Below are positions 42,938 to 56,205 of a stretch of DNA of 64,000 nt, in pieces. This DNA is from Candidatus Xenobia bacterium (GTDB lineage Bacteria; Vulcanimicrobiota; Xenobia; Xenobiales; QWHO01). The stretch is taken from contig BTUM01000014.1 in assembly GCA_045863235.1 (NCBI GenBank), positions 1 to 64,000 on the forward strand. Direction: 5' to 3'. The position numbers and the translations under genes are program-made. Under the pieces are notes generated by a model that worked only from the letters and a program-made list of their open reading frames with translations, made no database searches and had not been told where the DNA came from. How positions within the stretch are numbered: position 1 is the stretch's first letter; the number at the start of each line of letters is the position of its first letter.

Positions 42938-43013
42938 TGGCCTCCACGGACGGACTCGAACCGTCGACCTACCGCTTAGGAGGCGGTCGCTCTATCCCCT
43001 GAGCTACGCGGAG
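42938..43013 (-). tRNA. tRNA-Arg(CCT)
   Basis: 76-nt cloverleaf: acceptor stem CTCCGCG/CGTGGAG, anticodon loop CT-CCT-AA, T-loop TTCGAGT, encoded CCA. Confidence 0.97.
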
Positions 43014-51955: not shown

Positions 51956-52393
51956 TCACTCGCCCGGCCCGTCGCTCGTAGGCGCTTCCCGGCGAACCTC
52001 CAGGCCAGCCCGATGCACCTCTCGCCCATCCACCTCGAAAGCCAGGGCGTAGAGCCCGAAGCGCGGAAAGACCACCTCTTCCAGGCCGATGATCAGTCGC
52101 ACGGTCGGCTCACCCGCATAGTTGACCTGGTTGAAACTGAGCGAGCCCTGCATCTCGTATTCGGCCTGGCCATCCGCATTCATCATCCGCAGTCTGAAAG
52201 GCCGCTCCAGCGGCGTTCCTGGCTCGGCGCGCAGCTGCAGCACGTAAAACATGCCATCCAGGCTGCAGGGTACCCCGGGAACGTTGAGCCGATCAAAACC
52301 GATTCCGCGAGCGTAGAGTTTGCCAGCGTCCTGCTGGGCAAAGTGGCACAGGAAGCCAAAATCCATCATGGGCATGGGGGCGCCTTCGGTCAC
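51956..52393 (-). CDS. DUF6941-like hypothetical protein
   Basis: 'FLCHFAQ..GKLY..GIGFD' and 'FPRFGLY'; overlaps the radA stop (GTGA). Confidence 0.65.
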   Translation of the reverse strand: MTEGAPMPMMDFGFLCHFAQQDAGKLYARGIGFDRLNVPGVPCSLDGMFYVLQLRAEPGTPLERPFRLRMMNADGQAEYEMQGSLSFNQVNYAGEPTVRLIIGLEEVVFPRFGLYALAFEVDGREVHRAGLEVRREAPTSDGPGE

Positions 52394-53844
52394 CCGGCTG
52401 GAATTCTCCTCCCCGGTCGAGGACCCGAAGGGGCGCCACCCGAAGGCCCGGGACTGGCCTCCAGGCCGGCGACCTGAAGTGCCTCCACCAGCCAGGAGAT
52501 GCCGACCAGCTGCAAGGGTCGATAGTCTCCGGGCTCCAGGCCCTCCAGGTTGCGAGCCGGCACCAGACAGCGCCTGAAACCCATCTTGGCCAGCTCCTTG
52601 AGCCGGGTCTCGAGTTGAGTGACCGCCCGCACCTCGCCCCCGAGCCCGAGTTCGCCCACGGCGGCAAGTTCCGCGTCGAGGCTTACGTTCTGCCGGCTGG
52701 AGACGACAGCCAGGGCCAGGGGCAGGTCCAGGGCGGGCTCGAGCAGGCGCAGCCCGCCGGCCACGTTCACGTAGACGTCCGAGCGGGCCAGGTTCAGGTT
52801 GCTGGCGCGTTTATGGACCACGGCCAGCAACAGGCTGACCCGATTGGGATCGACCCCGACCGACCGCCGCGTGGGCGGCACCCCGTTGTCGCTGACGGGG
52901 TTCGTGCTGACAAGCGCCTGGATCTCCACCAGCAAGGGGCGAGTGCCTTCCAGGGAGGGAAACACGATCGAGCCCGGACCGCCCCCGGCGCGCTGGGACA
53001 GAAAGAAGGCCGAGGCATCGGGAATTGACTCCAGCCCCCGGGCGCCCATCCGAAACAACCCGATCTCCTGGGTGCTTCCGAAACGGTTCTTGACCGAGCG
53101 CAGAGCCCGCACGTTGTGCATTCCGTCGCCCTCAAAATACAAAACCGTGTCCACCAGGTGCTCGAGCACGCGCGGGCCGGCCAGCTCGCCCCCCTTGGTC
53201 ACGTGACCCACCAGCAGGACCGGAATGTTCTCGGCCTTGGCCAGACGCATCAGGCTTGCCGCACACTCGCGTACCTGAGTGACGCTCCCGGGAGCCGGCG
53301 CAAGATCGGAGCGGAACAGCGTTTGAATGCTATCGATGAAGACCAGGCCAGGCCGGGTAGAGCGAATGTGTCCTTCGATGGCTTCCAGTCGGGTCTCGGA
53401 GACCATGAGGATGCCAGGAGCCAGCGCGTTCAAACGCTCGGCCCGCATGCGAATCTGGCGGGCCGACTCCTCGCCGCTCACATACAAGATCGGCGCCCTG
53501 GTCTGAGCCAACTGGCGGGCAATCTGCAGCAAGAGTGTAGACTTTCCGATGCCGGGGGGGCCGCCAAGCAGCACCAGGGAGCCCGGCACCACTCCGCCCC
53601 CCAGGACCCGGTCGAGCTCTTCCACGCCGGTGTTGAAGCGCGGCTCGTCATCGAGGGCGACCTGATCGAGGGCCACCGGGGCCTGACCCGGATCGAGCGA
53701 GAGGGCGGCACCTAGAGAGGCGCGCTGGACAGCCTCTTCCTGGAAGGTATTCCACTGGCCACAGTCAGGGCAGCGCCCCTGCCACTTGGCCGACTGGCCT
53801 CCACATTCCTGACAGACGTAGTGGGTCTTGCCGCGAGCCTTCAC
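52390..53844 (-). CDS. radA: DNA repair protein RadA/Sms
   Basis: C4 zinc finger (CQECG...CPDC), Walker A GPPGIGKS, KNRFG motif and Lon-like C-terminus; RBS GGGAGG before GTG. Confidence 0.97.
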   Translation of the reverse strand: MKARGKTHYVCQECGGQSAKWQGRCPDCGQWNTFQEEAVQRASLGAALSLDPGQAPVALDQVALDDEPRFNTGVEELDRVLGGGVVPGSLVLLGGPPGIGKSTLLLQIARQLAQTRAPILYVSGEESARQIRMRAERLNALAPGILMVSETRLEAIEGHIRSTRPGLVFIDSIQTLFRSDLAPAPGSVTQVRECAASLMRLAKAENIPVLLVGHVTKGGELAGPRVLEHLVDTVLYFEGDGMHNVRALRSVKNRFGSTQEIGLFRMGARGLESIPDASAFFLSQRAGGGPGSIVFPSLEGTRPLLVEIQALVSTNPVSDNGVPPTRRSVGVDPNRVSLLLAVVHKRASNLNLARSDVYVNVAGGLRLLEPALDLPLALAVVSSRQNVSLDAELAAVGELGLGGEVRAVTQLETRLKELAKMGFRRCLVPARNLEGLEPGDYRPLQLVGISWLVEALQVAGLEASPGPSGGAPSGPRPGRRIPAG

Positions 53845-53867
53845 AAGGACCTCCCGAAAAAAAAAGA

Positions 53868-54610
53868 GCAAGACCCCGGGAACTCTTCCTGGTCACCCTG
53901 GCTCGCCCCGTAGGGCGGCTGACATCGCTGACACTCTGACCGTAGCGCTTGGCGGCGAGTGGGACCGTTTCCGGTCCAGTGATACCCTCTGCTGGCCAGT
54001 CATTTCTGGCGGACCTTCTCAGGTCTGGCCTGGGAGAACTCCCCGGCCCGGTGCTTGCTTCCGTGGAAGCAGCCTTGAGGTCGACACGAGTTGCCTTTTG
54101 AGCAATTCGTTCCGGGCAACCCCCGTGGGGGTTGGATACCGCCCCGAGGGGCGGTTCGCGCCATCTCGACTCGCAGGCCGGAGCCTGTTGTTCGAGTCGT
54201 GCTCGGAAGCACTTGGCTTCCAGAGCAAGAACGTGAATCGCAAGGTTCAACGTTCATTCGGGCGGGCGATGCGAGGCTCCTGAGCCTCTGCCATCCGGTC
54301 TTGCCGGGCCACTTCGGTTTCTTGCACTGGCAGTTCGCCGTCGCGATGGACCTCAGGGGGTCTCTCTGCAGGGCGGTTGAAGTAGCTTCGCCGCTCGGAT
54401 TCCGTCAGGGCGTACCCCGTCGGATGATGGCGCCCTCGTTACGGACACACCTTTCGGTGCGGTCGCCTTCTTCGTCCGGAGGCGGTTCGCGCCACCGGAA
54501 GCGTCCTCAGTTCTCTGCAGAGGTCGCAGAGGCTTTACTGGAGACGAGAGGGTTCGATTCAGCTTTGATGTCTTCGGGTGCCTGGTTCCTCCGTTCGCTC
54601 GGGGTCTTGC
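53868..54610 (-). ncRNA. Candidate large (743 nt) highly structured non-coding RNA of unassigned family
   Basis: Own promoter; the 5' end GCAAGACCCCG pairs with the 3' end CGGGGUCUUGC, followed by U9; more than 12 hairpins, many with GNRA/UNCG/YNMG loops on the minus strand; no credible ORF. Confidence 0.8.
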
Positions 54611-54616
54611 AGGCGG

Positions 54617-54645
54617 AATATACCATCCGGGGGTGGTTCACACAA
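54617..54645 (-). promoter_or_regulatory. sigma70-type promoter for the large RNA
   Basis: TTGTGT (54645-54640), 17 bp ending in TGG (extended -10), TATATT (54622-54617), then 6 nt to the first G of the closing stem at 54610. Confidence 0.8.
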
Positions 54646-54760
54646 GCCAACAAGTGTTCGATTTTTAGAGTCTCATTCAAGTGGCGCCAGAGCGCCATTC
54701 AATCGAATGAAGACCCGAGAACCCCGTCAGGATGCCGATCTGTCAACGAACACAGGAACG

Positions 54761-54822
54761 CTAAAGTGCAAGACCAAGGCCTTGCACTTACAACGCGCCA
54801 GATGGGGCTAATGTGCAAGACC
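54761..54822. repeat. REP-like palindromic repeat
   Basis: TAAAGTGCAAGACC-AAGGCCTTGCACTTA-CAACGCGC ... GCTAATGTGCAAGACC. Confidence 0.75.
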
Positions 54823-54825
54823 AGA

Positions 54826-56205
54826 TCAGTTCCTCTCGGCCTCCTGAGTGCGCCAGTAGTTCTGGCCGGCTTCGCCCAGGGTGTAGACCGGGTCAAAATA
54901 CTCATAGCGCCGGTTGACCGCCTCGGGATCATCTCCCTCGATGCTGGTCCGGTAGTTCTTGGTCCAATACGAGATGCCACGCTCGCGATCATAGTCGGCG
55001 ATCTGATGCACCCAGCGCTTGCCCACGTAGGGGACGTCGCAGATGATGCGGGGAGTGGCGTAGCCGGGCAGATAGCCCATGATGTCGTGCTGCAAGCGTT
55101 GGGCCTCGTGCACCGCCAGTCGCCAGTGCTCTGAATTGGGAATCATGTCGCACATGTAGAAGTAGTAGGGCATGATATTGGCCCGGTCGAGCAAGGTGAA
55201 GCAGAGATCGAGCAAATCTTTGGAGGTCCCGTTGACCCCCCGCAGCAAGACGCCCTGATTGCGCACGTCACGGAAACCGGCTTCGTCGAGCAGATGCCGA
55301 GCCGCTCGAGCGACCAGCGGGGTCAGTTGCTGGACGTGATTCACGTGAGTGTGCAGGGCCAGGTCCACGTCGTGCTGACGGGCCTTCAAGCCCAGCCGCT
55401 CCATGGCATAGCGCACCTCGTCTTGCAGAAAGTGTTGAGGCAGGCCCATCAGGCCCTTGGAAGCCAGGCGGATGTCCCGGATGTGGGGGATCTCGATCAG
55501 GGCCGACACGAACGACTCGAGCGAGCTGATGGGCAGGTTGGCCACGTCTCCCCCCGACACGACCACGTCGCGAATGGTGGTGGTGCGGCGCAAGTAGTCC
55601 AGAATCTGCTGGTGACGCTCGGTCTGCTTGACCAGGAAGCGGTGCTTTTTGACCTGGGGAACGTCCCGCCCGACCAGGTCCATCCGGGTACAGTGACCGC
55701 AGTATTGGGGACAGGTCGAGAGCAATTCGGCCAGGACCTTTGTGGGGTAACGGTGGGTCAGGCCCTCGACCACCCACATCTCGGACTCGTGAAGGCTGTC
55801 ACGACTGGCCCGGGGGTGGTTGGGCCAGTCCGGGTTGCGGTCCTGGATGGCAGGCAACATGTAACGGCGCACCGGGTCGTTCTCGAGGTCGTCCAGGTTC
55901 ATGGTGTTCAGCATCTGGGGGGGGACCAGCATGGACATGGTGGCGCGCTCTTCCAGGTCACGGGCCATCCCTTCGGCCAGGCTGTCGCTGAGGTGCGAGC
56001 CCAGGGTCTCCTTCAGCTCAGCCAGGTTCTTGACCGTGTGCTTGCGCTGCCAGGTGGCGTCCTCCCATTCCTTCTCGGTCACACGAGCATAGCCGGGAAT
56101 GCGCCGCCAGTCGGGCTCGACGAACTCGCGCTGGGGAGGATAGGCGTATGGTTGCTCGGAGGCCTCAATGCTCCGCGCTTTGGGTTCATTGGAGATGATT
56201 GTCAT
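54826..56205 (-). CDS. kamA: KamA family radical SAM protein (lysine 2,3-aminomutase-like)
   Basis: 'GLTHRYPTKVL', CPQYCGHC, 'VVVSGGD', 'NQGVLLRGVN', 'PYYFYMCD' and 'GKR'. Substrate not established. Confidence 0.85.
   Translation of the reverse strand: MTIISNEPKARSIEASEQPYAYPPQREFVEPDWRRIPGYARVTEKEWEDATWQRKHTVKNLAELKETLGSHLSDSLAEGMARDLEERATMSMLVPPQMLNTMNLDDLENDPVRRYMLPAIQDRNPDWPNHPRASRDSLHESEMWVVEGLTHRYPTKVLAELLSTCPQYCGHCTRMDLVGRDVPQVKKHRFLVKQTERHQQILDYLRRTTTIRDVVVSGGDVANLPISSLESFVSALIEIPHIRDIRLASKGLMGLPQHFLQDEVRYAMERLGLKARQHDVDLALHTHVNHVQQLTPLVARAARHLLDEAGFRDVRNQGVLLRGVNGTSKDLLDLCFTLLDRANIMPYYFYMCDMIPNSEHWRLAVHEAQRLQHDIMGYLPGYATPRIICDVPYVGKRWVHQIADYDRERGISYWTKNYRTSIEGDDPEAVNRRYEYFDPVYTLGEAGQNYWRTQEAERN

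Follow-up and report, generated by a model that had tools for sequence, protein, structure and literature searches.

A large structured RNA upstream of radA in a Candidatus Xenobia bacterium: a member of a clade-restricted family with a probable tie to the DNA-damage response

Large structured RNAs are rare in bacteria, and those that have been described, such as RNase P RNA, transfer-messenger RNA (tmRNA), OLE, GOLLD, ROOL, and raiA, each opened a line of biochemistry. GOLLD and ROOL lie beside tRNAs or in prophages. 6S RNA, an abundant and stable RNA with paired 5' and 3' ends, is followed by a downstream gene in the ssrS-ygfA arrangement, and bacterial Y RNA, together with Ro (Rsr) in Deinococcus, is linked to the response to UV and DNA damage. 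The type I toxin transcripts tisB/istR, dinQ, and hokE are controlled by LexA, and the transcripts of tisB, dinQ, and hok are closed by pairing of their 5' and 3' ends that hides the ribosome-binding site. The LexA operator of Gram-positive bacteria (Cheo box) has the consensus GAAC-N4-GTTC. Described here is a 743-nucleotide (nt) RNA that shares individual traits with several of these systems and is encoded on the minus strand, directly upstream of the DNA repair gene radA, in a 64,000-nt stretch of contig BTUM01000014.1 (assembly GCA_045863235.1; the whole stretch is referred to below as the window). The host is an uncultured sludge and soil bacterium, and its phylum has almost no cultured members. 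Handles beginning with G, C, L, g, and f designate genomes, contigs, loci, genera, and families, respectively; G000 is the genome that contains the window.

Fold, transcripts, and database comparisons

The RNA located in the gap between radA and the KamA-family gene upstream of it is structured and non-coding. A 754-nt stretch of the minus strand folds with an energy of -362.8 kcal/mol, compared to -292.0 ± 5.7 kcal/mol in 20 shuffled sequences, none of which was as stable (z = -12.4); the plus strand of the same stretch yields z = -8.2. Two other subtypes of the family described below, B and D, have z-scores of -9.0 (a second copy in G000) and -5.7, respectively, the window RNA itself belonging to the A-type. 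In a BLAST search of 41 genomes (40 related ones and G000), three congeneric genomes proved to contain a homologue over the full length, with 96%, 96%, and 71% identity. In an alignment of five A-type sequences, one of them from a metagenome, 21 of the 235 pairs of the RNAalifold structure are changed on both sides, compared to 5.1 ± 1.9 in shuffles (0 of 500 reach 21) and to one to four pairs in controls with slid partners, all 21 double changes stemming from a single diverged sequence, that of G004, and therefore representing one evolutionary comparison only. In the D-type alignment of nine sequences, 16 of 57 pairs are changed on both sides (5.9 ± 1.7 in shuffles, 0 of 500 reaching that number; one to four in the slid controls).

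The gap itself, which extends from the end of the KamA-family gene (54826) to the GTG start codon of radA (53844), contains only short open reading frames (ORFs) that are Arg/Pro-rich and unconserved. The G000 RNA and its 71%-identical homologue are separated by 31 indels, only one of which has a length divisible by three, the substitutions are distributed by position modulo 3 as 89/80/63, without strong codon periodicity, and no ORF is common to the subtypes or kept within the A-type. On these grounds a coding or toxin mRNA was rejected.

The RNA had been proposed from the sequence alone, and most particulars of that original prediction are borne out. Nothing resembling a conserved gene is found in the gap, where it had seen no credible coding sequence, and both the folding energy and the compensatory changes in the A- and D-types support the RNA that it postulated. 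The predicted pairing over 11 base pairs (bp) between the ends, GCAAGACCCCG with CGGGGUCUUGC, followed by UC and U9, is present in the minimum-energy fold, as are 11 of the 12 listed hairpins and stems in exactly the form given, the stem at 54056-54071 being one base pair shorter. Two points did not survive. The fold lacks the long-range pairing suggested between 54512-54525 and 54349-54371 and has a local hairpin at 54513-54531 instead, and the better pairing of some stems on the plus strand, raised as a caveat, carries less weight than the five-sequence alignment, in which the minus strand pairs in 94.9% of 1168 cells and the plus strand in 91.2%, and in which 59 G-U cells against 15 A-C cells favor the minus strand. 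A pseudoknot between GGAGG, near the 5' end, and an interior CCUCC was also considered and rejected, since the CCUCC of the window RNA is not retained in G004.

The locus yields a discrete species of ~720-743 nt without its flanks. Fourteen RNA-library runs from six studies contain 0.60-0.68 of the sampled words of window positions 53700-54760, a 1061-nt stretch of which the RNA occupies 0.70 of the length. Four runs were examined by alignment of their contigs; in three of them, each a metatranscriptome from a different study (X5, X7, and X8), assembly produced one contig of 717-721 nt with 0 differences, spanning 53876/53883 to 54592/54599 and leaving the flanking genes uncovered. These contigs, which give neither the strand nor the exact ends, fall 8-18 nt short of the ends predicted for the RNA (11-18 nt at the +1 position) and agree in extent with the discrete RNA of ~743 nt that had been anticipated. 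The X7 assembly totals only 2.1 million letters, and its contig has a depth of 171.6.

Comparison with the 4227 models of Rfam 15, among which are GOLLD, ROOL, OLE, raiA, HEARO, group I and II introns, and riboswitches, gave no match on the RNA when the whole window was searched at gathering thresholds; the sole match at that level is a tRNA gene (42941-43013, minus strand). With the limit relaxed to E <= 10 for positions 53600-55000, three sub-threshold matches appeared (RsmY, HOTAIR_3, and PhotoRC-I), of which only PhotoRC-I (11.4 bits, 17 nt) lies inside the RNA, and nothing was found on the RNAs of the other subtypes, whether at E <= 1 (D and C) or at E <= 0.1 (B, C, and E). RNase P RNA (C1, 272.9 bits), tmRNA (C2, 168.8 bits), and the RNA of the signal recognition particle (SRP; C13, 66.5 bits) are all found elsewhere in G000 above the Rfam cut-offs, together with a weak candidate for 6S RNA (C34:8852-9026, 35.5 bits, below the cut-off of 46.4). 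A divergent form of any of the four was rejected for this reason (for 6S RNA, on the weak candidate), in keeping with the earlier statement that their hallmarks, and those of group I and II introns, are missing from the gap. A Y RNA was rejected as well, because the TROVE/Ro domain (PF05731) has no match in G000 (97.6% complete), whereas the controls from Deinococcus radiodurans and Bacteroides thetaiotaomicron scored. Literature listings and the opening parts of abstracts contained no paper describing such an RNA. The assignment of the 743-nt RNA to a previously undescribed family, put forward at first as a possible new class, is thus supported by covariation, by the RNA-library contigs, by the lack of an Rfam match, and by the presence of the housekeeping RNAs elsewhere.

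Family architecture and genomic context

Short BLAST matches to the first ~60 nt of the RNA revealed a shared 5' motif and, subsequently, a promoter element. The family comprises 27 distinct full-length RNAs of 278-1025 nt, plus one (L110) cut by a contig end; 4 of the 21 stretches from the genome collection (L073, L082, L083, and L088) and 12 of the 22 from metagenomes were dropped, as they lacked the motif. The promoter motif GAACNNNTGTTGGCTTG is invariant in all 27 members, and the invariant element common to them reads CGAACNNNTGTTGGCTTG. Of the 44 genomes of the class, 16 contain the motif, with 19 sites in total, each of which belongs to one of these RNAs; the reversed control pattern matched once. 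A motif match on contig C216 of G039 was discarded as due to chance, having no upstream similarity, and the true member in that genome is located on C23. When 401 genomes of the phylum were searched for a degenerate form of the 5' motif, it turned up in 16, every one from the order of the window, and in none of the 361 genomes outside that order. As far as searched, the family is confined to one order of Eremiobacterota (Ca. Xenobia). Within the order the RNA was found in genera g1, g4, g5, g8, and g9, and the motif was absent from the genomes searched in g2 (0 of 8), g3 (0 of 10), g6, and g7. In all five g2 genomes examined, radA is preceded by a divergent ORF, leaving only a short intergenic gap.

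Genomes with the RNA carry one or two copies. The second copy in G000, a B-type RNA of 978 nt (C103:22427-23404, minus strand; L071:491-1468), has the same promoter element and the same terminal helices as the window RNA and is flanked by ORFs without a Pfam family. A uvrA gene is located on C103 about 5 kb from this paralogue, in convergent orientation.

Five subtypes can be distinguished (A to E), and only the first ~30-55 and the last ~30 nt are alike in all of them. The first ~35 and the last ~40 nt pair to form a stalk consisting of helix P1, a GAAC:GUUC helix, an internal loop with GGAGGRA, and helix P2; in two-strand folds this architecture recurs in all five subtypes, with L062, L055, and L059 as exceptions. 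P1 comprises 10-12 bp formed by GCARGACCYYN and its complement and is followed by a bulge of 1-3 nt. Its pairing is kept in all subtypes, with exchanges of C-G to U-A (B-type) and of U-A/U-G. The middle helix is GAAC:GUUC, GGAC:GUUC, or CGAAU:GUUCG. GGAGGRA is present in 27 of 27 members and is unpaired in most of them, across the five subtypes (the exceptions being the three just named), and the strand opposite it varies in both sequence and length (AAGA, GCAA, GGAA, and longer in the E-type). P2 differs between subtypes yet is always complementary (GGCACCC/GGGUGaCC, CCUAC/GUAGG, and CCAGGCCGCC/GGUGGCUUGG), and a U-rich tail follows P1 in every one of the 27 members, being weakest in the E subtype. 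In turn, the interior, or crown, consists of hairpins with GNRA, UNCG, and CNCG loops and is subtype-specific and fast-evolving; the D-type is only ~300 nt long. Two known motifs were considered and rejected: a K-turn in the stalk loop, judged by eye, for which the strand opposite GGAGGRA is too variable, and an 11-nt tetraloop receptor in the D-type, the two halves of which sit in different helices.

The identity of the downstream gene was established with Pfam or NCBIfam at eight loci. Immediately past the RNA, and in the same orientation, comes radA at four of them (the window, G004, G039, and G034) and uvrA at the other four (G013, G025, G017, and the metagenome locus L108); G001 and G003 align with the window through the start of radA (alignment only). 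The distance from the U-run to the start of the repair gene is 13 nt in the window, with a ribosome-binding site GGGAGG at 53855-53850, and about 17-23 nt in G013 and G017, and at such distances the repair gene can be reached only by polymerases that read through the U-run or start within the RNA gene. The gap that precedes radA in G039 and G034 is ~85-200 nt long and could hold a separate promoter. In G031, G007, and G023, uvrA lies on the same strand 5.7-8.5 kb downstream of the RNA. The gene next to the RNA encodes an alpha/beta hydrolase in G031, G019, and G007, a glycoside hydrolase in G030 and G036, and, on the opposite strand, a phosphoenolpyruvate mutase in G023; all B-type loci are followed by ORFs without a family. 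At three g4 loci (L183, L184, and L187), uvrA is directly preceded by a gene for a repetitive Gly/Ser/Trp-rich protein, with repeats such as GGWSGGNRSGGF.

The promoter proposed for the window RNA stands as far as its letters and spacings are concerned, with 17 nt between TTGTGT (54645-54640) and TGGTATATT, but its -35 hexamer agrees with the consensus at only three of six positions and a consensus scan is silent there. Beyond this, the original prediction was right about the RNA as such and missed the family, the second copy, the LexA-box-like element, and the linkage to radA and uvrA across genera. At the other end of the transcription unit, the nine uridines follow the GC-rich P1 helix of 11 bp, which closes a "loop" of 721 nt, and the contigs from the RNA libraries stop short of the end of P1 by 8-15 nt. 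The UC + U9 tail is probably an intrinsic termination signal that uses the long-range P1 helix as its stem.

The element upstream of the -35 hexamer, CGAAC-N4-GTTGG, has one core mismatch relative to the boxes found at the lexA and uvrA genes of the clade. G000 encodes a LexA protein of 194 amino acids on contig C53 (TIGR00498, 121.2 bits versus a cut-off of 111), and in 10 of 10 genomes from g1, g5, and g4 a GAAC-N4-GTTC box with at most one mismatch is located between -85 and -98 from the start of lexA; such a box is found in 268 of 5000 random windows. Perfect boxes are present upstream of uvrA in all three g1 genomes (CGAACAGGCGTTCC in G000, CGAACACTTGTTCC in G001, and GGAACGCCTGTTCT in G004), that of G001 differing from CGAACACTTGTTGG of the RNA only in its last two letters. 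The uvrA genes of the g4 genomes in which they lie downstream of the RNA (G031, G007, and G023) have no box of their own. On balance, with the contrary observations given below, control of the RNA by LexA has about even odds.

Several observations concern LexA and its potential sites elsewhere. Two further proteins of G000 contain a LexA DNA-binding domain (C1:322933-323115 and C85:7938-8117; L116 and L117); the promoter of the former has a different palindrome, TGGACAAATGTCCA, and this protein is therefore probably a separate repressor. Three tandem GAAC-N4-GTTC boxes, two of them reading CGAACGTGCGTTCC, are located upstream of a D-Ala-D-Ala ligase gene (G000, C5:192826-192963), and CGAACGTGCGTTCC is also found upstream of a familyless ORF on C22. 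In genus g2, which lacks the RNA, the perfect palindromes TCGAAACAATGTTCGA and TCGAACCCATGTTCGA (L149 and L151), flanked by T- and A-runs, lie next to an opposite-strand ORF ~0.9 kb from radA and are likely LexA-type operators. With the G000 protein as query, LexA was detected in all genomes of g2, g4, g5, and g8 and in one of ten genomes of g3 (~2.4 Mb), a genus that lacks the RNA as well as, for the most part, LexA.

The coordinates of the window RNA, its parts, and its neighbors are collected in Table 1. In the spacer that separates the KamA-family gene from the promoter of the RNA (54700-54825), TGGTCTTGCAC(A/T)TTAGC is present in two direct copies, along with a hairpin formed by the inverted GTGCAAG/CTTGCAC, and GGTCTTGC from this spacer recurs as the 3' end of the RNA itself. 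The sub-threshold RsmY-like match mentioned above covers 54675-54788 of the plus strand (20.9 bits versus a cut-off of 57), and one RNA-library run includes a 31-nt contig with a depth of 50 at 54762-54789.

Table 1. Positions of the RNA, its promoter and stalk elements, and the adjacent genes in the window
Feature	Coordinates	Strand	Evidence
KamA-family radical SAM gene, upstream neighbor, outside the RNA unit	54826..56205	minus	lysine 2,3-aminomutase/KamA-family models, all below cut-offs; no Pfam family at 1e-5
CGAACACTTGTTGG, LexA-box-like GAAC-N4-GTTg, immediately upstream of -35	54647..54660	minus	family alignment; putative LexA binding
-35-like hexamer TTGTGT	54640..54645	minus	sequence reading; TTG kept in all members
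Extended -10 TGGTATATT, 6 nt before G54610	54617..54625	minus	sequence reading; TAnnnT at the same position in other members
RNA, 743 nt, A-type family member	53868..54610	minus	fold, covariation, RNA-library contigs
P1, 5' strand GCAAGACCCCG	54600..54610	minus	pairs with 53868-53878 in the fold
GGAGGAA, 7-nt 5' side of the stalk internal loop, Shine-Dalgarno-like	54586..54592	minus	conserved
P2, 5' strand CCAGGCACCC	54576..54585	minus	pairs with 53888-53898
Hairpin, loop with self-complementary hexamer AGCGCU	53939..53956	minus	loop kept in 5/5 A-type; a kissing-loop contact is possible, as a lead only
P2, 3' strand GGGUGACCAGG	53888..53898	minus	fold
P1, 3' strand CGGGGUCUUGC	53868..53878	minus	fold
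UC + U9 tail directly after P1	53857..53867	minus	sequence reading
radA (DNA repair protein RadA/Sms), GTG start	52390..53844	minus	TIGR00416, 550.8 bits versus a cut-off of 403; Pfam domains

Proposed mechanism and rival explanations

The reading that we favor, with a probability of roughly 0.6, is that of a stable, non-coding, SOS-controlled RNA in which the helix formed by the two ends additionally acts as a gate to read-through transcription of the repair gene. Transcription would start at about G54610 from the extended -10 promoter, and CGAAC-N4-GTTGG would serve as an operator for the LexA of the clade, placing the RNA in the SOS (DNA-damage) response. The P1 3' strand, on emerging, would pair with the waiting 5' end and, together with the U-run, would release the RNA. 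Polymerases that read through would be the only or main source of radA mRNA at this locus and of uvrA mRNA in other genera, and the RNA gene would thereby also gate the repair gene. We can only speculate on the role of the released RNA, which might act in trans as a scaffold or decoy, with a partner recognizing the exposed GGAGGRA loop. This loop, also a perfect Shine-Dalgarno sequence, might be the docking site, and the RNA might self-associate through palindromic loops (AGCGCU in the A-type and CCUAGG in the D-type). The fullest version of this mechanism is offered tentatively and, taken as a whole, must be considered rather unlikely: a LexA-controlled RNA of 0.3-1 kb, released by its terminator helix, would function in trans in damage recovery as a scaffold, decoy, or self-assembling particle, its GGAGGRA loop docking a protein or the ribosomal anti-Shine-Dalgarno sequence, while termination meters radA or uvrA.

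A number of observations weigh against the favored reading. As regards LexA, no box precedes lexA in any of 11 genomes of g8, g9, and g2, where lexA follows another gene, although g8 and g9 carry the RNA. The second half-site of the RNA box is always GTTG and never GTTC, and the box adjoins the core promoter rather than lying over it. The promoter element of the RNA is longer and far more conserved than the lexA boxes and may therefore serve another factor. There is no box within 450 nt upstream of the RecA-domain match of recA, and GAAC-N4-GTTC is not enriched genome-wide over other spacings (108 sites versus 147 and 158). An SOS regulon based on the 108 perfect sites, which gave 40 site-ORF candidates, was rejected after 20 ORFs had been tested, since none of them was clearly an SOS gene; the families represented are D-Ala-D-Ala ligase, HNH, integrase, PilZ, CHAD, and FGase, with 14 ORFs familyless. 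Additionally, environmental RNA samples for which no DNA damage is known contain the RNA in abundance. As regards gating as its chief role, the B-type copies and several D and E loci have no repair gene next to them, and consensus scans report neither a promoter nor a terminator at the locus. The promoter is missed because of the poor -35 hexamer, and the 3' end of the RNA escapes the terminator scan, which covers only loops of 3-8 nt, because the P1 stem is long-range. Finally, in the fourth run examined, X4, the flanks are covered at a depth of ~4 by contigs that bridge both ends of the RNA, with a hole at 53967-54207; these low-depth contigs could be due to DNA carry-over or to read-through.

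The main rival to the reading as a stable RNA is that of a giant cis-acting leader, or attenuator, of radA and uvrA, in which the formation of P1 would decide between termination and read-through and the RNA would be only a by-product. It accounts for the repair gene found directly after the RNA at the eight loci tested, with gaps that exclude a promoter in the window (13 nt) and in G013 and G017 (~17-23 nt), for P1 with the U-run being the only terminator-like feature, and for the restriction of conservation between subtypes to the promoter and stalk. This explanation is weakened, however, by copies that precede unrelated, familyless, or opposite-strand genes (five distinct B-type sequences, G023, G030, and G036), and by the longer radA gap in G039 and G034, where a separate promoter could be accommodated. 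Moreover, the compensatory changes in the crown reveal structural selection on the interior that would be needless in a simple spacer, the subtypes share no conserved interior pocket of the kind that a ligand sensor would need, and the RNA accumulates to high depth while its flanks remain unseen. We thus regard a leader without a further function as unlikely.

Less probable still is a self-assembling "ornate" RNA similar to GOLLD, ROOL, or OLE, forming a homo-oligomeric particle, for which the linkage to repair genes would reflect nothing but a shared type of promoter. The window RNA is in the same size class and has many hairpins capped by GNRA, UNCG, and CNCG loops, and self-complementary loop hexamers are found in the A-type (AGCGCU, 5 of 5) and in the D-type (CCUAGG, 7 of 9 in single folds and 9 of 9 when aligned). 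Kissing-loop dimers use such hexamers. GOLLD, ROOL, and OLE are reported to form homo-oligomers (PMC12286853). However, no palindromic loop was found in the B, C, or E types, one such hexamer among few loops is near chance expectation, and Rfam gives no match to GOLLD, ROOL, or OLE.

Two explanations can be largely set aside. A structured mRNA for a small SOS-induced peptide, comparable to the type I toxins tisB, dinQ, and hok, would be consistent with the LexA-like box, the paired 5' and 3' ends, and the perfect GGAGG near the 5' end, but it is most improbable in view of the lack of a start codon 5-12 nt past GGAGG in the A and D types, the lack of an ORF conserved between subtypes or within the A-type and of any hydrophobic peptide with a ribosome-binding site, and the pattern of indels and substitutions given above. 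A mobile or selfish element or its decayed remnant (a miniature inverted-repeat transposable element (MITE), an intron, or a retroelement RNA) is equally hard to credit: although the promoter-RNA-terminator unit is found at different loci across genera and is duplicated in g1, genomes hold only one or two copies rather than the many dispersed ones that the original prediction had associated with a MITE, the single short second match in G000 is the 5' end of the paralogue, the radA linkage common to families f1 and f3 and the uvrA linkage within f2 argue for vertical descent, no reverse transcriptase or transposase occurs among the flanking ORFs submitted to Pfam (many of which have no family), and no group I or II intron is matched in Rfam.

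The data thus point to a new, clade-restricted family of large structured RNAs that is plastic in size and probably tied to the DNA-damage response. Its architecture is odd, in that the ends and the promoter are invariant, whereas the interior is exchanged for another from genus to genus, with a more than three-fold expansion. The family is also tractable, being abundant in environmental RNA data and including a natural form of ~300 nt that suits structural work. The apparent LexA-type promoter, together with a position that would make the RNA gene the only transcriptional route into radA or uvrA, suggests that the response to DNA damage includes an RNA layer, and we know of no previous description of a layer of this kind. 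Under the fullest version of the mechanism outlined above, a large structured RNA would for the first time be found wired into the SOS response of bacteria.

Comparison with described systems

Each of the systems outlined at the beginning resembles the present RNA in some respects and differs from it in others. The arrangement of 6S RNA and ygfA is similar in that an abundant, end-paired RNA is immediately followed, in the same orientation, by a protein gene that must be reached by read-through, whereas the window RNA is four times longer (the family reaching up to five times) and its fold is branched, not a rod with a central bubble. Y RNA shares with it a terminal stem formed by both ends, a conserved loop or bulge as a likely protein dock, a variable module, and a link to DNA damage. 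The present RNA is, however, several times larger, the sequence of its stem is unrelated, and it lacks both a TROVE/Ro gene in the genome and a match to the Y RNA models of Rfam. The transcripts of tisB/istR, dinQ, and hokE combine, as the present locus appears to, an SOS box at the promoter with a structured RNA in which paired ends bury a Shine-Dalgarno-like sequence, but the window RNA has no conserved or plausible ORF and no evident antisense partner, and it is two to three times longer.

The Cheo box is echoed by the GAAC-N4-GTT core of CGAACACTTGTTGG and by the boxes that the lexA and uvrA promoters of the clade carry. It is distinguished from the element of the RNA by the second half-site, which in the latter is always GTTG, and by the extent of the conserved block, which continues further (…GGCTTG) and abuts the promoter hexamers without overlapping them. 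The closest likeness in overall character is to GOLLD, ROOL, and OLE, with which the RNA shares a size of hundreds of nucleotides, dense helices capped by stable tetraloops, a transcription unit of its own, and a narrow phylogenetic range. It departs from them in having no Rfam match and in conserving only the promoter and the terminal stalk, the interior being replaced between genera over a range of 278-1025 nt. It differs further in its surroundings, since the present RNA adjoins radA or uvrA and bears a LexA-box-like element at its promoter.

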